Assembly (NCBI GenBank): GCA_963717505.1
Contig: OY970342.1
Location: 2,560,001-2,624,000 of the forward strand
Reading direction: 5' to 3'
Source: Candidatus Eiseniibacteriota bacterium
GTDB taxonomy: Bacteria > Eisenbacteria > RBG-16-71-46
Length of the DNA: 64,000 nucleotides
Below, piece after piece: positions 28,247 to 43,981 of the stretch. Positions within the stretch are counted from its first letter, which is position 1. The number at the start of each line of letters is the position of its first letter. The notes below the pieces were generated by a model. That model searched no databases, was not told where the DNA came from, and saw only the letters and a list, made by a program, of their open reading frames with translations. The position numbers were made by a program, and so were the translations under genes.

Positions 28247-28329
28247 GCCGGGATGGCGGAATGGTAGACGCAACGCACTTAAAATGCGTTGGGCGAAAGC
28301 CCGTGCAGGTTCGATCCCTGCTCCCGGCA
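28247..28329 (+). tRNA. tRNA-Leu(TAA)
   Basis: GCCGGGA/TCCCGGC acceptor stem, D-loop TGGCGGAATGGTAGAC, anticodon arm ACGCA-CTTAAAA-TGCGT, long variable arm GGGCGAAAGCCC, GGTTCGATCC; CCA not encoded. Confidence 0.95.
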
Positions 28330-34497: not shown

Positions 34498-34677
34498 CCT
34501 GCCACGCATGAGGCGCCCCCCTTCGCGCCGGCTGCCGCAACCGGCTGCGTCTCCTGCCCTCTGGGAACGGAACCGGATCGACCCACAACATCAGGTCCGC
34601 GTCGCGTCCATCCTCGTGCTTGGGACTCATCGCCCCAGCGTGCGCAGGCGGGGCCCGCCGTGAGACAGGAGACATCC

Positions 34678-36402
34678 ATGCGGAGTATCCCCCGTCCCAT
34701 GGCGCCGGTGTCCGTCGCCCTCCCTCTGCTCCTGATCGGCTGTCTCGCGGTCGCTCCAGCCCTGGCCGGCCCGAACCGGGGCAGTCTCGAGCCCAAGGCC
34801 AAGCCCAAGTCGGAGGACACTTCACCGGCCGCGGCGACCCCCTGGGAGACCCAGGCGCCGCCGGCCAACGACACCTGCGCTGGGGCGACCCTGATCGCCT
34901 GTGGCACGTTCGACATCAGCGGTACGACCGCCGAAGCCCTCGACCACTACACCTTCTCGCACGACACGCTGTCCTGTACGGGATTCGTGACCCCGGGACG
35001 CGACGTGGTCTACAAGTTCAACGCCGTCCCCGGCGACAGTATCTGGGTCGATCTCACGACCCCGGGTTGGGATGGCGCGCTCTACTTGATCACCGATTGC
35101 GCGCATGAGGACACCACCTGCTACAACGGCGAGGACGACGCGGGTGTCGGTGGCACCGAGTTCCTGCGCGAAGGAATCGTCGAGGCCGGGACCTACTACC
35201 TGGTCGTCGACACCTTCGAGCCCAATGGGGGCGGACCTTTCACGCTCCAGGGTCAGTTCCGTTGCGCCGGAACGCCGCCGCCGCCGTCCAACGACCGTTG
35301 CGACTTCCCGGCGCTCATCGCCTGCGGGCCGGTTTCGTTCAGCGGAACCACGCAGTACGCGAACAACAACTATCAGTTCCCGTCGACTGCGAACTGCACC
35401 GGCGTGATCTCGGCCGGGAGGGACATCGTCTACGTCATGAACGTGGTGGCCGGCGACAGCCTGTCGGCGAACTATCAGTCGACCGCGAACGGTGTCGCCT
35501 ACATCGTCCACGACTGCACCAATCTGGTGGGCACCTGCATCCGCGGCGTGAACGCGGTCGGCGCCGGCGGAACCGAGCTGATTCGCCACCAGTTCCTGTT
35601 CAGCGGCACGTACTACCTGATCCTCGATTCGGAGGGGTCGAATTCGTTCGGGACCTGGTCCTTGACCGGCGAATACCATTGTCCGAAGCCGCCGTCCAAC
35701 GACATCTGCGAAGGCGCCATCCCACTGCCTTGCGGCCCGTTCGAGCGCAGCGGCAGCACAGTCGCCGCGGTCAACAACTACAATCTGGTGGATTCGCTCT
35801 CGTGCACCGGCTATCGCGCCAGCGGGCGCGACGTCGTTTACAAGGTCTACGCGACCGCCGGGGACAGCCTGTGGCTGGACTACGCGATGCTCGGCGCCGA
35901 TGGCTCGGTCTACGTCGCCACCAACTGCAATGACGTCACCTATTCGTGTGTCGCGGGCGCCGACAACGTCGGTTTCAACGAAACCGAAATGCTCCGCTAC
36001 CGCTTCCTCAGCACCGGGGTCTATTACATCTTCATCGACAACTTCGGCACGGACGCCGGCAGCCACTACACGATCTCAGGCTGGATGGACTGCGCGAACA
36101 CCGCCGTCGGCTCGAACCCCGCGCGGGGTCTCTCGCTCGGCGCGCTCCATCCGAATCCGTTCCGCAATCAGACGACGATCCCGTTCGCGCTACCGGCCGC
36201 GGCCCACGTGAAGCTGGTCCTGGTCGATTTGCAGGGCCGGGTGGTCCGCACCCTCTACGACCGCACCCTGGCGGCGGGCTCGCACCAGACCACCTGGGAC
36301 GCCCGCGACGACGATGGCCATCCGGTCCATGCCGGGGTGTATTTCCTCAAGCTCTCCGGCCTCGACGGTGAGTCGGTTCGCCGCGCCATCGTCGTGAGGT
36401 GA
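34678..36402 (+). CDS. Secreted protein with three Cys-rich PPC-like repeats and C-terminal FlgD-Ig (T9SS-CTD-like) domain
   Basis: AGGAG RBS; signal peptide; repeats begin PPANDTC, PPSNDRC, PPSNDIC; C-terminus PNPFRNQT...WDARDDDG...AGVYFLKL. Confidence 0.85.
   Translation: MRSIPRPMAPVSVALPLLLIGCLAVAPALAGPNRGSLEPKAKPKSEDTSPAAATPWETQAPPANDTCAGATLIACGTFDISGTTAEALDHYTFSHDTLSCTGFVTPGRDVVYKFNAVPGDSIWVDLTTPGWDGALYLITDCAHEDTTCYNGEDDAGVGGTEFLREGIVEAGTYYLVVDTFEPNGGGPFTLQGQFRCAGTPPPPSNDRCDFPALIACGPVSFSGTTQYANNNYQFPSTANCTGVISAGRDIVYVMNVVAGDSLSANYQSTANGVAYIVHDCTNLVGTCIRGVNAVGAGGTELIRHQFLFSGTYYLILDSEGSNSFGTWSLTGEYHCPKPPSNDICEGAIPLPCGPFERSGSTVAAVNNYNLVDSLSCTGYRASGRDVVYKVYATAGDSLWLDYAMLGADGSVYVATNCNDVTYSCVAGADNVGFNETEMLRYRFLSTGVYYIFIDNFGTDAGSHYTISGWMDCANTAVGSNPARGLSLGALHPNPFRNQTTIPFALPAAAHVKLVLVDLQGRVVRTLYDRTLAAGSHQTTWDARDDDGHPVHAGVYFLKLSGLDGESVRRAIVVR
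34858..36096 (+). repeat. Three tandem ~140-aa protein domain repeats
   Basis: Each unit is PPxNDxC...ACG...SGTT...CTG...GRDxVY...GDS...C...C...GxYYxxxD; units start at ~34858, 35281 and 35689. Confidence 0.75.
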
Positions 36403-36463
36403 TCGCGGGCTTCCGCGCCCCGTCGGCGAACCTGGGAGCGAGGTCGCGGATCGAGAGGATCCT

Positions 36464-37711
36464 GTGACTCGGATCGTCCTGTTGGCCGCGACGAAGACCT
36501 ACCGGGCCGGTGCGTTCCTGGAAGCCGCCCAGGGCCTCGGAGTCGACGTGACCGTGGGCTCGGACCGCCCGCAAGCCCTCGAAGCGCTGAATCCGGCCGG
36601 GCATCTGCTGCTGAATCCGGGGGACGCTGCGGCTTCCGGCCGAAGCGTGGCCGCATGGGGTCGCACGCATCGGGTGGCGGCCGTGCTCGCTGCCGATGAC
36701 GACCTGGCGCTGGTGGCGGCCCATGCGGCCGCCGAATTGGGATTGCCCCACCATTCGGTCCGCGCGGTGAGCACGGCAAGAGACAAACGGCTGATGCGCG
36801 GGGTGCTCGCGCGCGCCGGCCGGCCGGGTCCCTGGTATCGCGGCTTCGAGCTCGATCACGATCCGGCCGACGCGGCGCGCCGCGTCGACTACCCATGCGT
36901 GATCAAGCCCGTGGATCTGGGGGCCAGTCGAGGCGTGATTCGCGCGAATCATCCGGGGGAGTTTGAGGCCGCCTTCACGCGATGCGTGCGGATTGCCGCC
37001 GATTCGGGTTCCCTCGGCCTGCTCGCCGAACAGTACCTGCCCGGCGACGAGGTGGCGCTCGAGGGGTTCGTTCACCACGGACGGCTCGAGGTCCTCGCGC
37101 TCTTCGACAAGCCCGATCCGCTGGCGGGCCCGTTCTTCGAAGAGTCGATCTACGTGACGCCCTCGCGGCATCCGGATCGGATCGTGAGCGAGGTGGTGGC
37201 AGAGGCGACAGCGTGTGTGACCGCACTCGGTCTCGATCACGGGCCGGTGCACGCCGAACTGCGGATCGACCAGGGGGTCGCCACGCTGGTGGAGATTGCT
37301 CCGCGTTCGATCGGGGGGTTATGCTCGCGAGCGCTGCGGTTCGCGGGTGGTCTTTCACTGGAGTCGGCCCTGCTGCGTTACCTGCTGGGGGCGGCCCCCG
37401 GTTCGCTGTCCCGCGAGGCGCTGGCGGCGGGCGTGATGATGATCCCGGTGCCGGCCTCAGGAACCCTGAAGACCGTGCGCGGCGTCGAGCAGGCGCGGCG
37501 GGTCGATGGGATCGAGGACATTCGGATCACGATTCCGGTCGGCGACGAGGTCGTGGCGCTGCCCGAAGGCTCCCGCTATCTCGGGTTCGTCTTCGCGCGC
37601 GGCGACCACCCGGATCTGGTGGAAGCGGCCTTGCGGGCGGCGCACGCACGGCTCGAGTTCGACATACGGCCGATCGATGCGTCACCTGCGGTCGCCATGA
37701 GGACCAAATGA
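36464..37711 (+). CDS. ATP-grasp ligase (L-amino-acid ligase-like)
   Basis: ARDKRLMR, YPCVIKP..LGASRGV, EQYLPGDE, GPVHAELR, VEIAPRSIGG. Confidence 0.88.
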   Translation: MTRIVLLAATKTYRAGAFLEAAQGLGVDVTVGSDRPQALEALNPAGHLLLNPGDAAASGRSVAAWGRTHRVAAVLAADDDLALVAAHAAAELGLPHHSVRAVSTARDKRLMRGVLARAGRPGPWYRGFELDHDPADAARRVDYPCVIKPVDLGASRGVIRANHPGEFEAAFTRCVRIAADSGSLGLLAEQYLPGDEVALEGFVHHGRLEVLALFDKPDPLAGPFFEESIYVTPSRHPDRIVSEVVAEATACVTALGLDHGPVHAELRIDQGVATLVEIAPRSIGGLCSRALRFAGGLSLESALLRYLLGAAPGSLSREALAAGVMMIPVPASGTLKTVRGVEQARRVDGIEDIRITIPVGDEVVALPEGSRYLGFVFARGDHPDLVEAALRAAHARLEFDIRPIDASPAVAMRTK

Positions 37712-38304
37712 TCACGATCACCGAGTTGGCTCAGGAGAGAATCGCCGCGTTCATGAAGGCCGAGAACCGCCCCAATCTCGCGCTGCGCTTCGCGGTCGAG
37801 GGACGAGGTCCGGGCGGATTCATGTATCGGCTCGCCTTCGTCGATGCCGCCGAACAGGCCGCCGACGATCGGGTGGTCGACGTCGGTCCGTTCCAGGTCC
37901 TGGTCGATGCGCGGAGCGTCGAGAGCCTCACGGGAGTGACGCTCGATTTCGTCGAGGGTCCGAACCAGAGCGGTTTCCGCATCGACAACCCGAACCCGCT
38001 GTGGACCGACTCGGTGGCGCTCGCGGTTCAGAAGGTGTTGGACGAGGAGATCAACCCGGCCGTGGCCACGCACGGGGGCTGGGTGGCGCTGCTCGAGGTC
38101 CGCGACGGAGTCGCCTACGTCCAGCTCGGCGGCGGCTGCCAGGGCTGCGGCATGGTCGACGTGACCCTGCGCCAGGGCATCGAGGTTCGGTTGCGCGAAG
38201 TGGTTCCCCAGGTGCGCGAGGTGGTGGACACCACCGATCATGCGGGGGGCGCCAACCCCTACTATCGACCGTCCAAGGGCGGCGGCGCGTCGCCGTACTC
38301 ATGA
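37708..38304 (+). CDS. nfuA: NfuA-type Fe-S carrier (degenerate A-type domain + NifU-C domain)
   Basis: MITITELAQ..., GFRIDNPN, INPAVATHGG, GGGCQGC, DTTDH..GANPYY. Confidence 0.88.
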   Translation: MITITELAQERIAAFMKAENRPNLALRFAVEGRGPGGFMYRLAFVDAAEQAADDRVVDVGPFQVLVDARSVESLTGVTLDFVEGPNQSGFRIDNPNPLWTDSVALAVQKVLDEEINPAVATHGGWVALLEVRDGVAYVQLGGGCQGCGMVDVTLRQGIEVRLREVVPQVREVVDTTDHAGGANPYYRPSKGGGASPYS

Positions 38305-39803
38305 ACGTCGAAGCGCCGGCCGCGGTTGCCGGCGCGACACGCCGGGTCCGGGTCGTTCTGCTCTCGACCTACGACCTGGGCCGCGCCCCGTTCGGCCTGG
38401 CATCACCTGCGGCCTGGCTGACCGACGCCGATTGCGATGTGCGAGTGAACGATCTCGCGGTCGAAGCCCTCGACGAAGAGGCGGTGCGATCGGCCGACCT
38501 GATCGCGTTCCATCTGCCGATGCACACGGCGACCCGTCTGGCGGTCGCGCGGCTGCCGCACCTCAAGGAGTTGAATCCACGGGCGCGTCTGTGTGCCTAT
38601 GGACTGTACGCGGCACTCAACGAAGAGCACCTTCGCTCGCTCGGCGTGGCGGACGTGCTGGGCGGCGAATTCGAAGCCAGCCTGGTCGAAGTGGCGCGCC
38701 AGCTCGGTGCGCCGGGCCTCGAGGACTCCGTCGCCGAGGGGGCGAGGGACCTGCCATCCGCTCCTCCGAGCCCCGGCGCGGACTCCGCCGCGCCGGCCAT
38801 GCCTCGCCTCCGTTTTCGGGCGCCCGCCCGCCACCTGCTGCCTTCGCCCGAAGCCTACGCACATCTGCATCTGCCGGATGGTACGCAACGTGTGGTGGGC
38901 TACACCGAGTCGACTCGTGGATGTCGCCATCGTTGCCGCCACTGCCCGGTGGTTCCGGTCTACCAGGGGCGAGTGCGCGTGGTTCAGCGGGAGGTGGTGC
39001 TCGAAGATGTGCGCCGCCAGGTCGCACGCGGGGCCCGCCATGTGACGTTTGGCGATCCCGATTTCCTGAACGGTCCGGGACATACGCTGCCTCTGGTCCG
39101 CGCGCTGCACGCCGAGCATCCGGACGTGAGCTGGGACGCGACGATCAAGATCGAACACCTGGTGCGACACGCCGCACTCCTGCCGGAGCTGGCGGCTCTC
39201 GGCTGCATCCTGATCACCAGTGCCGCGGAGTCCGTGGACGATCGGATCCTCGCGCGTCTCGAAAAGGGCCACACGCGTGCTGACTTCGAAAACGCCGCGC
39301 GACAGGTGCGGAACGCCGGGATCACGCTCCAGCCGACCTTCGTCGCCTTTACGCCGTGGACCACTCCCGAAGGGTGGTCGTCGCTGCTTGCCGCGATCGC
39401 CGATATGGATCTGGTCGAGCACGTCGCGCCGATCCAGCTTGCGATCCGTCTGCTGATTCCCGCGCGGTCACGACTGCTCGAGCTGGATGAGGTTCGCCGG
39501 CTGGCGGGGGCCTTCGACGGCGAGGCGCTGGTGTACCGGTGGCAGCATCCCGACCCGCGGGTGGACGCTCTGCAGCGGGACGCCGAGTCTCTGGCGGGTG
39601 AGCTGGCGCGGGAGCGCGCCCCTCGAACCGAGTCGTACGCTCGGTTGTGGGCGCTGGCCGAGCGCTTCGCGACGGCCGAGGATCGCGACCGCGTGGCGCG
39701 CGCGGCGTCGTATCGGCGGCCGCCGGTGCCCCACCTGACCGAGCCCTGGTACTGCTGAGCGGAGCCTCTCGTGGAGCCGGCGGCTCCGCTCGGGTCGATC
39801 TAG
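38301..39803 (+). CDS. CUAEP-tail radical SAM selenoprotein (B12-binding-like N-domain); TGA 39756-39758 = Sec
   Basis: RGCRHRCRHCP (CxxxCxxC). After EPWYC-TGA the frame continues AEPLVEPAAPLGSI-TAG (39801-39803), and a SECIS-like hairpin follows the TGA. Confidence 0.85.
39759..39796 (+). promoter_or_regulatory. Putative bacterial SECIS element
   Basis: 12 nt after the UGA: 8-bp stem GUGGAGCC/GGCUCCGC with a G-initiated apical loop (GGC) 21 nt from the UGA. Confidence 0.65.
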
Positions 39804-42800
39804 AAGCCCGGCTGGAAGCTGAACTGCCAGTACCAGCCCTTCTGCGGGCGGTCGTTGGGATGAACCAGATCCATCTCGGCGATCAGGAAGCCGAACAAGT
39901 TCATACGCATCGCGACTCCGTGGCTGCTGACGACGTTCTGCTGGCCGTTCCGATAGGTCGGATCGTCGCCCATGCCCCATGCCGAACCGACATCGAAGAA
40001 CGCCGCCAGTTCGACCGGCGGCATCATCGCGCTGCGCAGCACCCCGAGCGGGCCGAACACCGGCAGTCGGGCCTCGACGTTGGCCACGGCCAAGCGGCTG
40101 CCGAACAGGCGATCCCACGACTCGCACGGACCGAACCCGGTCGGGTCCTCGCACTCGCTGACCCGGAAGGACTCCTGGTCGTATCCGCGCACCAGGCTCG
40201 GGTAGCCGAGGAACAGGGAGCTCATCAGCGGGGACTCCGCGTCGGGACCATAACGGCCAAAGGTCAGAGCCCTGCCCGCCAGGGTCAGCGGCCGCATCGG
40301 CATCACGTAGTGCCGAAGGTCGAGCAGGAAGCTGTTGTAGACCAGGTCGCCGGCATAGACATCGAGCTCGATGCGCCCGCGGCTGCCGAGGACCGGGCTC
40401 GTGCCGCCAAACAACGAATTGTCGTGGACCAGGGCAACGATCCCGACCCCCATGTCGAGCGCCTCCGGATCGGCGTAGAAGCCGCCGGTGGTCTCGCTGA
40501 CCAGACGGCCGGAGCCGTCGTAGAGGCGCGTCGTCAACTCGCTCTCGAACCCGACACTGCGGAATCCGCCGGCGAACTCGATGCGCCGAATGCGGTCGAA
40601 GGGATAGGCCACGGTCCCGAGCGCGCGACGCTCGACCTGCCAGATGAGCGCGACGTCCTCCTGGGTGCCCTGCGAGCCATCGGGAAGCTGGACGACGTTG
40701 TACTCCAGGCCTCGGGTCAGATACGGGACCTGGCTCAACTCGACGCCCCAGTTCCAGCGCCGCCTCAGATTCCGATAGTCGAGGACCGCGGCGACGTTGT
40801 TCAGGAAGTTGCCGCCGTCCGAACTGATCTCCAGATAGGTGGCGAGATTGTGATCGCCGAGCATGTCGCTCCAGTAGAGTGTGGCGCCGCCGCCGCCCGA
40901 CACGCTGCCGCCACCGACGCCAAAGCCGATGCCCACCTGGGACACCTTGTCGAGTGACAGCGAGGGGCGATAACCCGTCTGCTCGAATCCGGTGGTGTCG
41001 ACCAGTCCCTCTTCGGGGTCTTCGAGCATTGATTGGACCTCCCCGCGCTCCGAAGTGATCGGCTGCATCCGGGTGCGGAAGTCCACGGTGTCGGTAGGCG
41101 CACTACGCGCATACGAGGGCGATCCGGCGAACGGCGGATCCTGGACGTCGTTCGGATCATTGAGGGCCTGCTCGCCGGCCGGCGGCAGGCCGATGTCCAG
41201 CGATTCGGGGAGGGCGCGAACGGTATTGGTCACCGCGAAATCGGGATAGTCGGGTGGCAGGATCCAGGCGGCCAGCGAGTCCGCTCCGAACACCAGCGGC
41301 TGACCTCTGGTCGACAACGAGTCCAGGGCGAAGATCGAATAGGCCCCGTTCTCGTAGGCCGCGAATACCATCCGATCGCCGGTGCGCGACACCGAGATGG
41401 CCGGGCTGGTGGCGGTCAGGCCGCTGACGCCGGTGCCGACGTTCGTGATCTGCGTCCAGGTCTGCGACTCGAGTTCGAGCCGGACCAGGTTCGGGATCCC
41501 GCCCGGCGCGGCGATGCAGTAGAGCGCGCGGCCGTCGGGCGACCACTGCGGGTTCAGGTGCTTGGAATTCGGCAACGACGGCAGCAGATGGACCGAACCA
41601 TCGGGAATGTCGAGCAAGGCCAGTCGCAGGTGGCCATGCGACAGGTTCTCAATCGGAGCGAATCGCTCGGTGATGAACGCGATGCTCTTGCCGTCCGGCG
41701 ACCAGGCCGGTTGCAGGTCGGCGGGCAGGTCGTTCGTCCACCGACGCACGCTTCCGGAGTGCAGATCGATCGAGAACAAGTCGGTGTGACCGCCCGCGAG
41801 TGCCGAGAACGCGATGGAACGGCCGTCGGGCGACCACGACAGCGTCCAGATCTCGCCGATTTCGCGCACGGAATATTGGCGGCGCGTCTGACCCGAGGCC
41901 ACGTCGATCACCTGGATCGCCGACCGCCCGTTGCGGACGGTCGCGAACGCGAACTGGCGGTTGTCGGGGCTCCATGAACCCGCGCCGCTGACGAACTGAA
42001 GGCTCTGCAGGTGGGGATCCACCGCGGTGCGCGTCACGCGCCTGCTGATTCGGCCGGTGTGCGCGTCGGCGAGATACAACTCGATCGAGAACAGATCCCG
42101 CTCCGAGAGGAACATCACCTGACGTCCGTCGGGGCTGAGCGAGGGCGCCAGGTTGTACACGCCGCGATCGCCGGTGGAGCCGATCAGGGGCTTGACCAGC
42201 GCGGTCGGCGGCTGCCCACCGACACGGTCGGACTGGGCGCGCAGCGCCCGATGCCAGTCCCGAGCCAGCGAATCGGTCGGCACCCCGAGGACTGCCGAGA
42301 AGGCCTGTTCCATCTCGATGCCCCTCGAGACCGCCTTGAGCAGTTCTCCGATCGCGCGATCGCCCCAGCGCTCGCCGACGTAGGACCACAGGGAGTGGCC
42401 CCAGCGATACGGGAAGTAGCGGTACTCGGCCAGGTGCGCGAGGTCGGGCAGTTCCTTGCCGCTGCGCACGGCGTCGCGCATCCACATCGAGGTGTGCGGA
42501 TCGATCGGGCCAATGGTCAGGTACTCCGCCATGCCTTCGATGAACCACAACGGCATGCGCATCGCGACCGATCCGCCGACCCGCGAACGACCCATGATGT
42601 CGTACTGGAACGCATGAACCAGCTCGTGGCCGACGACGTGGTCGGTCTCGGCCAGCGAACCCGAGAAGGGCAGCACGATGCGCCGCTTGACCGACTCGGT
42701 GACACCGCCGGTGCTCTCGTCCAGGTCGCCCTGAATCGCGTTGGTCTGTTCGAAGTGCGGGTGGCTGGCATACATGATCAGCGGCTGCCGCCCGGCCAGC

Positions 42801-43051
42801 TCGTGATTCAGCACTCGGGACAGGCGCGTGTACCAGCGTTCGGCCATCCGTGCGGCGGTCGGGATGGCGTCCGACTCCTCGCTGTAGTAGTAGACGTCGA
42901 AGTGTTCGGTCTTGAGGATGTCGAAATCGAAGGTCCGGTAGTTGACCTTGTTCCGGCCGAAATACTGGGCCGAGGCCGGGTTCGATCCGAGCACGAGCAA
43001 GACGGCGGCTGTCGCCAGCGGCCCGAGCTTGCGTGGCTGGCAAAAGGACAT
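39800..43051 (-). CDS. Zincin-like (HExxH) domain + PD40/TolB beta-propeller + BamA/TamA-like C-terminal beta-barrel
   Basis: Signal peptide then QYFGRNKV; HELVH and WFIEGMAEY; repeated WSPDG; VRGY barrel motif; terminal Phe (FSFQPGF). Confidence 0.82.
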   Translation of the reverse strand: MSFCQPRKLGPLATAAVLLVLGSNPASAQYFGRNKVNYRTFDFDILKTEHFDVYYYSEESDAIPTAARMAERWYTRLSRVLNHELAGRQPLIMYASHPHFEQTNAIQGDLDESTGGVTESVKRRIVLPFSGSLAETDHVVGHELVHAFQYDIMGRSRVGGSVAMRMPLWFIEGMAEYLTIGPIDPHTSMWMRDAVRSGKELPDLAHLAEYRYFPYRWGHSLWSYVGERWGDRAIGELLKAVSRGIEMEQAFSAVLGVPTDSLARDWHRALRAQSDRVGGQPPTALVKPLIGSTGDRGVYNLAPSLSPDGRQVMFLSERDLFSIELYLADAHTGRISRRVTRTAVDPHLQSLQFVSGAGSWSPDNRQFAFATVRNGRSAIQVIDVASGQTRRQYSVREIGEIWTLSWSPDGRSIAFSALAGGHTDLFSIDLHSGSVRRWTNDLPADLQPAWSPDGKSIAFITERFAPIENLSHGHLRLALLDIPDGSVHLLPSLPNSKHLNPQWSPDGRALYCIAAPGGIPNLVRLELESQTWTQITNVGTGVSGLTATSPAISVSRTGDRMVFAAYENGAYSIFALDSLSTRGQPLVFGADSLAAWILPPDYPDFAVTNTVRALPESLDIGLPPAGEQALNDPNDVQDPPFAGSPSYARSAPTDTVDFRTRMQPITSERGEVQSMLEDPEEGLVDTTGFEQTGYRPSLSLDKVSQVGIGFGVGGGSVSGGGGATLYWSDMLGDHNLATYLEISSDGGNFLNNVAAVLDYRNLRRRWNWGVELSQVPYLTRGLEYNVVQLPDGSQGTQEDVALIWQVERRALGTVAYPFDRIRRIEFAGGFRSVGFESELTTRLYDGSGRLVSETTGGFYADPEALDMGVGIVALVHDNSLFGGTSPVLGSRGRIELDVYAGDLVYNSFLLDLRHYVMPMRPLTLAGRALTFGRYGPDAESPLMSSLFLGYPSLVRGYDQESFRVSECEDPTGFGPCESWDRLFGSRLAVANVEARLPVFGPLGVLRSAMMPPVELAAFFDVGSAWGMGDDPTYRNGQQNVVSSHGVAMRMNLFGFLIAEMDLVHPNDRPQKGWYWQFSFQPGF

Positions 43052-43183
43052 GCGATTCCTCAGTAATCGACGCGCCCGGCCCCGAGTGGAATTTTTACGT
43101 CGGTTCCAGGCCGCCGGCCGCGCCTTTGGATTCCGCCGCTCCCGAAGAGGCTCTGGTATTGTAACTCGCGGGATGTCATCTCG

Positions 43184-43981
43184 ATGACAATGATGCCAGC
43201 ATCGGGGCCGGGAGGCGAGCCGGCCGCCGGTGACGCGCCGGCCCTGGAGTTTTCGGCAGTTCGCAAGCGCTTCGGCACGTTCGTCGCGGTCGACGGCGTC
43301 ACGTTCGAAGTGCCGGCGGGCCGGTGTACGGCGCTGCTCGGCCCGAGCGGCTGTGGCAAGTCGACCCTGCTTCGCCTGGCCCTCGGGCTCCTCAAGCCGG
43401 ACGAGGGTGCCGTGCGATTCGCAGGCCGCGACACGAGTGAACCCGGAATGCGAACGCGAATGGGCTACGTCATTCAGGACGGTGGCCTGTTCCCTCACCT
43501 GACCGCCGCCCAGAATCTCGGCCTCAAGACGCGAGACCTAGGCTGGCCGGCGGCGCGGATCGCACGGCGTATCGACGAAGTCGCCGGGATCGCCCGATTC
43601 GCCCGCGAGCTGCTCGGTCGCTATCCGCTGCAGCTCTCGGGCGGGCAGCGGCAGCGCGTCGGCCTGATGCGCGCCCTGATGCTGGATCCCGAGCTGCTGC
43701 TGCTCGACGAGCCGCTCGCAGCACTCGATCCGATCGTCCGCGCGGGCCTCCAAGAGGAGTTGCGGCGCATCTTTCGAGAGTTGAGGAAGACCGTGGTGTT
43801 CGTGACTCACGACCTGGTCGAGGCCGCCTACGTCGCCGACGAGATCGTGCTGCTCCGTGCCGGCCGGCTGGTGCAGCGCGGGCGGTGGCGGGACTTGAAG
43901 GACCAGCCGGCGGAGGATTTCGTTCGCGAGTTCGTCCGCGCCCAGCGCACGCTGCACGACGTCGAGGGAATCCCACAGTGA
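43184..43981 (+). CDS. ABC transporter ATPase, osmoprotectant/betaine (OpuA/EgtV-like)
   Basis: GPSGCGKST, GYVIQDGGLFPHLT, LSGGQRQR, LLLDEP, FVTHD. Confidence 0.92.
   Translation: MTMMPASGPGGEPAAGDAPALEFSAVRKRFGTFVAVDGVTFEVPAGRCTALLGPSGCGKSTLLRLALGLLKPDEGAVRFAGRDTSEPGMRTRMGYVIQDGGLFPHLTAAQNLGLKTRDLGWPAARIARRIDEVAGIARFARELLGRYPLQLSGGQRQRVGLMRALMLDPELLLLDEPLAALDPIVRAGLQEELRRIFRELRKTVVFVTHDLVEAAYVADEIVLLRAGRLVQRGRWRDLKDQPAEDFVREFVRAQRTLHDVEGIPQ

Follow-up and report, generated by a model that had tools for sequence, protein, structure and literature searches.

A radical SAM selenoprotein of the CUAEP-tail family, related to ArsL, is co-inherited with an ATP-grasp enzyme of the L-amino-acid-ligase type

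ArsL, a radical S-adenosylmethionine (SAM) enzyme of Pfam family PF04055, is reported to convert SAM into 5'-methylthioadenosine (MTA) and a 3-amino-3-carboxypropyl (ACP) species through an Fe-C organometallic intermediate, while three Cys residues of its RCCLKC tail hold As(III); tail-less ArsL still cleaves SAM and loses the product (bioRxiv 10.1101/2024.02.01.577332, 10.64898/2026.04.29.721666). According to the second of these reports, cleavage of SAM at the γ carbon has so far been shown within PF04055 for ArsL alone (bioRxiv 10.64898/2026.04.29.721666). Here we analyse a three-gene operon that encodes a relative of ArsL, in a stretch of 64,000 nucleotides from Candidatus Eiseniibacteriota (contig OY970342.1; the whole stretch is referred to as the window). 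The relative belongs to NCBIfam family NF040546, described as uncharacterised in the single paper on it that a library search found, and its gene is inherited together with that of an ATP-grasp ligase assigned to the L-amino-acid-ligase (LAL) type. This co-inheritance is new in this analysis. Together with the recurrent company of the iron and Fe-S proteins YggX and Nfu, it makes the orphan family part of a defined two-enzyme system whose substrates can be tested.

The other components also have described counterparts. NfuA rebuilds the radical SAM cluster of the enzyme LipA (PMC13692748), and YggX has been proposed as a ferrous iron donor (PMC3989283). A review table gives Met-Gly and Met-Met as the products of the L-amino acid ligase BL00235 (PMC6920838). 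Vicinal Cys-Sec (CU) dyads are a feature of the selenoproteins HgcA, the MerT family and the MerB-like protein of the SAO system, and the Haft paper lists the CUAEP family among few others with a CU motif (bioRxiv 10.1101/2022.07.06.499078). An earlier note on this DNA had invoked both the Cys tail of ArsL and the regeneration of the LipA cluster by NfuA, and both are found in the reports cited here.

The operon lies on the + strand of the window, and its genes were confirmed from the open reading frame listing, the raw sequence and the translations:

36464 to 37711, + strand: L-amino-acid-ligase-type ATP-grasp enzyme, 415 aa, GTG start (Pfam, profile search)
37708 to 38304, + strand: NfuA-type Fe-S carrier, 198 aa (Pfam Fe-S_biosyn and NifU)
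38301 to 39803, + strand: CUAEP-tail radical SAM selenoprotein, 500 aa including U486 (NF040546)

At both junctions (ATGA at 37708-37711 and 38301-38304) the TGA stop of the upstream gene shares four bases with the next ATG, and the GTG start of the ligase gene is preceded by GAGAGGA, a Shine-Dalgarno-like stretch. The trio is a compact, translationally coupled operon of co-oriented genes; the earlier note had already called it an operon, with the same ATGA overlaps. Neither flanking gene recurs at the module in other phyla, and we therefore take the unit to be the ligase, NfuA and radical SAM genes. Overlaps of four bases are, on their own, an ordinary and unremarkable operon feature. What goes beyond chance is the gene pairing kept in other genomes and a conserved hairpin 3' of the UGA codon.

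To compare loci we used a set of 81 from many phyla, made up of the window and the best 80 of 587 relatives (among 600 pattern matches), with genes counted by tblastn; 50 of these loci, termed well-flanked, have at least 3 kb on both sides. A ligase of ~40-50% identity is encoded within 3 kb of the radical SAM gene in 55/81 loci and in 40/50 well-flanked ones. Gene order varies. Ligase-NfuA-radical SAM is found in the window, in L019 and in the Latescibacterota metagenome-assembled genome (MAG) L045, radical SAM-ligase at most Acidobacteriota, Methylomirabilota, Oscillochloris, Burkholderiales and Rhodospirillales loci, and in L052, L067 and L069 the two genes are on opposite strands. The neighbours of ligase-less loci are heterogeneous, with no alternative conserved partner among them.

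The pairing extends to genomes in which the two genes are far apart. We examined 151 genomes from the window's phylum and 151 from the phylum of locus L030. In the window's phylum, the radical SAM gene is present in 23/151 genomes, 21 of which also have a strong ligase match (>350 bits). None of the 128 genomes without the radical SAM gene has one, and seven of these hold only paralogues of 148-173 bits. Both genomes lacking a match are incomplete: one (88% complete) has its radical SAM gene at the end of a contig, and the other is 87% complete. In L030's phylum, a strong ligase occurs in 22 of the 23 radical SAM genomes versus 5/128 others (G183, one of these five ligase-only genomes, is flagged unpublished), and 12 of the 22 pairs are unlinked, being located on separate contigs or up to megabases apart. 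Of five genomes picked for a non-adjacent ligase, four carry a strong match at another site, which in one case contains 5 stops. In at least two phyla, the ligase and the radical SAM enzyme make up a two-enzyme module: whether or not their genes are linked, genomes acquire, retain or lose both. Although kin are not independent and blocks may have been transferred horizontally, such a phyletic pattern would be difficult to account for if the two did not share a function. The co-occurrence of all three genes in other genomes had been suggested as a test of the system; the ligase/radical SAM pair passes it, whereas NfuA is mostly replaced by YggX outside the window's lineage.

Some individual loci deserve mention. 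The MAG contigs L024, L027 and L051 are assigned to Verrucomicrobiia and Dormiibacterota and have the complete synteny of the Acidobacteriota type (permease, lgt, aconitase, radical SAM, ligase, YggX, PGI, HAD, G6PD, glucokinase), which suggests mis-binning or block transfer and calls for caution in counting independent lineages. Near ligase-less radical SAM genes, a class I/II PLP aminotransferase is encoded ~0.9 kb downstream in Nonomuraea (L028:10357-11628) and divergently beside the gene on the Thermomicrobium roseum megaplasmid (L104:5503-6714).

The radical SAM protein scores 616.2 bits against NF040546, 'CUAEP/CCAEP-tail radical SAM (seleno)protein' (cut-off 500; residues 18-494, profile positions 1-466/468), and carries both the C-[U/C]-A-E-P tail and the CX3CX2C motif. 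Its main sequence features are:

38922 to 38945, + strand: CX3CX2C (Cys208, Cys212, Cys215), the radical SAM [4Fe-4S] motif, invariant in 19/19 aligned members
39204 to 39206, + strand: codon of Cys302, a family-specific invariant Cys (alignment A1; Leu in an aligned ArsL)
39747 to 39767, + strand: tail W-Y-C-U-A-E-P, residues 483-489, with the Sec codon TGA at 39756-39758 (translation)

The second-best NCBIfam model is that of ArsL, NF040542 (269.7 bits, cut-off 450, residues 19-428), and every other NCBIfam radical SAM model reaches at most 43 bits. In this profile comparison NF040546 is the nearest sister family of ArsL, and the scores bear out the earlier description of the protein as an ArsL-related seleno-radical SAM enzyme with a CUAEP tail. 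The gene is single-copy in its genome (609.8 bits in the genome search, with 1 TGA inside the match). Pfam Radical_SAM is matched with 51.6 bits, and the B12-binding domain PF02310 stays below its threshold (23.3 vs 32.1 bits), so that the protein does not qualify as a cobalamin-dependent class B enzyme. Across the 19 aligned family members, E481, P482, W483, Y484 and C485 are invariant and no Cys is conserved that could serve an auxiliary cluster. The residues past the dyad are conserved as AEPTxxQ[LV]xP, while the lengths and ends of the tails vary among loci. The family is much commoner than its sister ArsL and is usually a selenoprotein. It is present in 23/151 genomes in each phylum sample, and a protein search gave at least 8000 scored candidates of the NF040546 type at E <= 1e-20.

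Like ArsL, the protein has an N-terminal Rossmann-like domain, a CX3CX2C radical SAM core and a Cys-rich C-terminal end, and it is 32-34% identical to annotated ArsL and RCCLKC-tail proteins over ~405 residues (81% of its length). There are, however, clear differences. Its NF040542 score of 269.7 bits is below the 450 expected of an ArsL. Whereas the RCCLKC tail of ArsL provides three soft ligands, WYC-U/C-AEP offers two, and it is preceded by ~45 extra helical residues. Cys302 is matched by Leu in one aligned ArsL. The partner enzyme is a ligase here and a methyltransferase in ArsL. Searches with seven proteins of a reference ars island (ArsR, ArsC, arsenite transporter, ArsQ, ArsM, aquaporin and ArsN1) found no match in the 81 loci at E <= 1e-5. 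The ArsL family itself was found in 0/151 genomes of the window's phylum at E <= 1e-100, a threshold at which the positive control was likewise without a match. Identity as ArsL is rejected on score, tail motif and ars context alike.

An AlphaFold2 model based on 19 family members reached a mean pLDDT of 85 and a pTM of 0.86. The closest PDB structures are AprD4 (the best match, cobalamin-free), MgmA, TsrM and MiaB, and an ArsL structure is absent among these structural matches. A PDB search with the sequence gave only 37 bits, to AprD4. The tail is modelled with moderate confidence and forms β-bridges, suggesting that it may be docked rather than free. Cys302 starts the strand 302-306, at the N-terminal end of a barrel strand. 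We considered this residue as a substitute for the third ligand of ArsL and gave the idea less weight, as its modelled position is probably far from the cluster and facing away from it.

Under translation table 11 the radical SAM frame stops at TGA 39756-39758. Read as selenocysteine (Sec, U), this codon opens 14 more residues up to TAG 39801-39803, giving the C-terminus ...TEPWYC-U-AEPLVEPAAPLGSI. The genome encodes selA (565.9 bits), selB (345.5 bits), selD (346.7 bits) and tRNA-Sec (67.1 bits), all above cut-off. The codon after WYC is TGA in 52/81 loci and TGC or TGT in 29/81. Downstream of it, a conserved hairpin was located:

39772 to 39788, + strand: hairpin resembling a selenocysteine insertion sequence (SECIS), columns 17-22 x 28-33 of alignment A3, 16 nt past the UGA (covariation)

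In the ungapped alignment of the 52 Sec loci, 83.3% of the hairpin cells are paired, compared with 73.0% in shuffles and at most 64.4% when the hairpin is slid along the alignment. The covariation score is 0.355 vs 0.195 in shuffled alignments, and 0/500 shuffles reach 0.355; pair 17-33 is GC in 19, AU in 18 and CG in 5 sequences. The 36 nt starting at +9 past the codon fold with a mean of -12.05 kcal/mol in Sec loci (n=52) vs -7.88 in Cys loci (n=29), the sequences in both groups being related. The window's own 66-nt fold at the UGA is no better than its shuffles (z = -0.80; 36/200 shuffles fold as well). As the Sec machinery is encoded, Cys takes the position in 29/81 homologues and the hairpin 3' of the UGA covaries, the predicted radical SAM protein is marked as a true selenoprotein. 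The natural Cys forms, for example in the cultured Thermomicrobium roseum and Saccharothrix syringae, make expression practical. The selD gene of the genome (C1:3020964-3022149, outside the window) encodes a selenoprotein itself, with an in-frame TGA, and is directly followed by tRNA-Sec. In the window, positions 28247-28328 (+) match the tRNA-Sec model with 43.5 bits, under the gathering score of 47, and probably represent an ordinary long-arm tRNA.

The ligase matches the Pfam domains ATP-grasp_4 (90.4 bits), LAL_C2 (64.5 bits) and ATPgrasp_N (29.7 bits) above cut-off, and no NCBIfam model above cut-off. A profile of 17 orthologues aligns over its full length with BL00235 (3VOT) at 235 bits and with BacD at 109 bits, and the single sequence matches BL00235 with 118 bits. 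The ATP-grasp residues K148, E265, E277, R281 and G284-G285 are invariant in the orthologues. The ATP-grasp ligase of the earlier note can accordingly be named more closely: judged by its domains and its homology to solved LALs it is of the L-amino-acid-ligase type, with a predicted dipeptide-forming activity. While ATPgrasp_N, ATP-grasp_4 and LAL_C2 are shared with BL00235, BacD/YwfE and RizA, the ligase represents a separate, unnamed orthologous group, 41-50% identical across phyla, which has an invariant Cys287 after the R-x-x-G-G loop and, unlike those enzymes, is co-inherited with a radical SAM enzyme. Its ESM Atlas matches are unnamed ATP-grasp/LAL clusters only.

Variants of the ligase gene were also seen. 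In the Mycobacteriales MAG L075 (4378-5724) a circularly permuted ATP-grasp enzyme (CP_ATPgrasp_1/2) is encoded directly upstream of the radical SAM gene, replacing the LAL-type ligase. Twelve long proteins match the ligase, five of which (P0126, P0127, P0130, P0132 and P0133) carry both Radical_SAM and ATP-grasp Pfam domains. We rejected these as genuine fusions and read them as frameshifted gene calls, because their junctions are out of frame; those of P0126 and P0127 hold VLLSG or VVLLRRA, the +1 frame of WYC-U/C-AEP. The metagenomic protein P0124 (1176 aa) continues from the ligase through a PSP1-like stretch into a ferredoxin-type sulfite reductase in one frame. It is a single sequence that could be a merged gene call and, if real, hints at sulfur or selenium chemistry.

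The middle gene of the operon had been called a dedicated NfuA. Its product matches Fe-S_biosyn with 53.0 bits (residues 2-96) and NifU with 79.4 bits (107-173), and has the architecture of NfuA, with a Cys-free, degenerate A-type domain fused to an Nfu domain containing a CXXC motif:

38137 to 38148, + strand: CQGC (Cys144, Cys147) of the Nfu domain, the protein's only two Cys (translation and sequence)

It falls below the NfuA equivalog cut-offs (TIGR03341, 117 vs 269.35 bits; NF008392, 94.2 vs 268). The protein is the sole match to itself in its own genome, in which YggX was not found. Full-length orthologues (52-74% identity) occur in 33/151 genomes of the window's phylum; in 16 of the 33 it adjoins the ligase or radical SAM gene or is enclosed by the two, and the remaining 17 genomes are without a radical SAM gene. 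In the relative L102, the order secreted protein, NfuA, OsmC and large outer-membrane fusion (minus strand) reproduces the flanks of the window, and the site holds neither ligase and radical SAM genes nor remnants of them. In another relative, L103, NfuA also adjoins the large outer-membrane fusion protein. Being the only genomic copy, and kept at the same site in L102 without ligase and radical SAM genes, this NfuA is not dedicated. Around a general NfuA gene, the ligase and radical SAM genes have been acquired or lost, which corrects the tempting reading of the embedded gene as a dedicated maturase. The resemblance to the NfuA/LipA pair lies in the same two-domain build and in being encoded beside a radical SAM enzyme. 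Unlike that NfuA, the operon protein is below the equivalog cut-off, is a general copy and persists without the enzyme; unlike LipA, the radical SAM enzyme has no conserved auxiliary-cluster Cys.

In other genomes YggX is the more frequent companion. YggX (Pfam Iron_traffic; 'oxidative damage protection protein' in NCBIfam) is encoded within 4 kb in 44/81 loci and 32/50 well-flanked ones, and 10/81 and 7/50 loci have NfuA or a bare Nfu domain as a direct neighbour. The two never occur together (0/81 loci), and one or the other is present at 39/50 well-flanked loci. YggX is upstream on the same strand in Methylomirabilota and some Terriglobia, downstream on the same strand in L077, L084 and L086, and convergent with the ligase gene in most Acidobacteriota and in Oscillochloris. 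It is beside the ligase gene in three of the four genomes whose radical SAM gene lies elsewhere, and in L030's phylum sample it is present in 17/23 radical SAM genomes and 38/128 others. The module is recurrently located beside the iron or Fe-S chaperone of the cell. Among the papers listed by a term search, none treats YggX together with radical SAM or ATP-grasp enzymes. Apart from aconitase and DUF169 genes at some of the 81 loci, the other neighbours are housekeeping genes. Genes related to oxidative damage are scattered, namely an MsrP/MsrQ-like pair after the radical SAM gene (L030:9537-11245), Fpg just before it (L038:451-1299) and OsmC after NfuA in the module-less L102 (6685-7356).

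By analogy with ArsL, we tentatively favour, at somewhat less than an even chance, an ACP transfer to a soft atom on the Cys-Sec dyad, followed by ligation, with upkeep by NfuA or YggX. The radical SAM enzyme would use its [4Fe-4S] cluster to cut SAM at the γ carbon, as ArsL does, and Cys485-Sec486 would hold a soft atom (S, Se or a metal/metalloid) as the acceptor of the 3-amino-3-carboxypropyl group. The resulting γ-substituted 2-aminobutyrate would have the shape of methionine or homocysteine, and the ligase would couple it, by way of an acyl-phosphate, to another amino acid. The cluster would be labile to turnover and oxygen, and NfuA or YggX would replenish it or its unique iron. ACP transfer is favoured because ArsL is by far the closest characterised relative. 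The ligation step is favoured because BL00235, the nearest solved ligase, takes methionine-shaped substrates, and Met is itself the ACP-S-CH3 amino acid. As for the upkeep, an enzyme that uses a unique cluster iron organometallically plausibly needs resupply of iron or cluster. Given the gene context, arsenic is unlikely to be the substrate atom.

Several points weigh against this proposal. The membership tests for ArsL fail, and the tail would offer two soft ligands rather than three, Cys302 probably providing no third. The chemistry of any NF040546 member is a prediction from sequence, and sequence cannot reveal γ-carbon cleavage here, as the determinant for it is left undefined in the second ArsL report cited above. 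With its tail modelled as docked, and ~45 extra helical residues before it, the swinging arm proposed earlier for the dyad stays hypothetical. NfuA and YggX are general genes, found in 17 and 38 genomes without the radical SAM gene, and their adjacency may reflect co-regulation instead of direct service. The adjacency counts are raised by relatedness among the genomes and by horizontal movement of entire blocks. Nonomuraea, one of the five genomes tested for a non-adjacent ligase, has only a 135-bit paralogue and no strong ligase, and the megaplasmid record of Thermomicrobium roseum, searched without the chromosome, contains neither ligase nor YggX.

In its widest form the proposal describes a widespread pathway (~15% of genomes in the two soil phylum samples) that has so far gone undescribed, in which ArsL-type chemistry on the Cys-Sec dyad would yield a new γ-hetero-substituted amino acid, such as an S- or Se-bearing homocysteine analogue, and the ligase a dipeptide that acts as a low-molecular-weight thiol or selenol or as a metal-handling metabolite tied to Fe-S protection. 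We regard this wider claim as doubtful. If true, it would provide a second known reaction type for ArsL-like enzymes and a concrete client for YggX.

The alternative that survives best is that a canonical 5'-deoxyadenosyl (5'-dA) radical acts on an amino acid or dipeptide made or consumed by the ligase, while Cys-Sec or Cys-Cys serves as a redox dyad (selenenylsulfide/disulfide) that moves electrons or a hydrogen atom. Such an arrangement is possible, if rather unlikely. Redox-active pairs near a C-terminus are familiar from the Gly-Cys-Sec-Gly end of large thioredoxin reductases and the C-terminal Cys pair of ribonucleotide reductase. The interchange of Sec and Cys at one position (52 vs 29 of 81 loci) is typical for redox sites, the closest structures (AprD4, MgmA, TsrM and MiaB) are ordinary 5'-dA-forming or cobalamin-class enzymes, and oxidative-damage genes (YggX, MsrP/MsrQ-like, Fpg, OsmC) occur around the module. 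On the other hand, the nearest characterised relative in sequence is ArsL (269.7 vs <=43 bits), the Cys tail of which binds substrate, and no thioredoxin- or reductase-type partner is conserved across the 81 loci.

Another candidate is a role in iron or Fe-S homeostasis, in which the module would make a small thiol/selenol or iron-binding dipeptide to protect or maintain Fe-S enzymes, or would itself act on such enzymes. This would account for the mutually exclusive NfuA/Nfu or YggX gene at 39/50 loci, for YggX remaining beside the ligase gene in genomes with a distant radical SAM gene, and for NfuA being embedded, with stop and start codons overlapping, in the middle of the operon. Aconitase is encoded divergently within 1 kb in 23/81 loci, but all of these belong to one synteny type with lgt, permease and G6PD, and therefore reflect about one evolutionary event. 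YggX and NfuA also occur without the module, and we know of no Fe-S assembly step that uses an L-amino-acid ligase. Overall, we judge this explanation improbable.

The narrow form of the reading in the earlier note is an arsinothricin-like pathway, in which the dyad would hold As(III), methyl-As(III), Sb or Hg and the ligase would make a Trojan-horse dipeptide antibiotic comparable to bacilysin. Here, too, the kinship to ArsL is in favour, and organoarsenicals are bound by vicinal Cys in ArsI. CU dyads are otherwise described in HgcA, MerT-family and MerB-like proteins; these sit in mercury or organometal neighbourhoods, whereas the radical SAM module does not. A gene of DUF169 (PF02596), for which NCBIfam has no name, lies within 3 kb in 7/81 loci (L031, L035, L037, L041, L045, L050, L053). 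It follows the radical SAM gene (e.g. L037:9507-10259), and precedes the ligase gene where that is downstream and the contig reaches it, so that it can be counted in favour as standing between the two enzymes. A DUF169 gene is also reported beside HgcA-like genes of Nitrospina, with MerR and a YHS protein (bioRxiv 10.1101/648329). Against this stand the missing homologues of all seven ars proteins, the housekeeping neighbours with no conserved exporter or resistance gene, and a presence in ~15% of genomes of the two phylum samples, more in keeping with a physiological trait than with a rare antibiotic cluster. We consider a metalloid antibiotic very unlikely.

Equally far-fetched is a pair that modifies peptides or proteins, either RiPP-like or with the ligase extending a protein C-terminus such as the radical SAM tail, as RimK does on S6: RiPP clusters commonly carry radical SAM and ATP-grasp enzymes and the AEPTxxQ[LV]xP residues past the dyad are conserved, but a Pfam search found no SPASM, twitch or RRE domain of a RiPP maturase, the ligase, with its LAL_C2 domain, belongs to the LAL type acting on free amino acids and not to the graspetide type, the overlapping genes and the 61-bp upstream gap leave no room for a precursor gene, and the tail, variable in length and end, has its conservation in the Sec forms explained by the SECIS hairpin.

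As for the surroundings of the operon, a sequence scan of positions 36200-40000 found no promoter-like sites and two terminator-like sites, the latter within expectation. Upstream, positions 34660-36402 code for a secreted protein whose sorting tail is of the Por/FlgD type; this gene ends 61 bp before the ligase gene. Downstream and convergent with the operon, positions 39800-43498 (minus strand) code for a fusion protein of 1232 aa that joins Peptidase_MA, PD40 β-propeller repeats and an Omp85-type barrel. Around its stop codon the fusion gene overlaps the 3' end of the radical SAM gene, and in relatives it is conserved beside NfuA.

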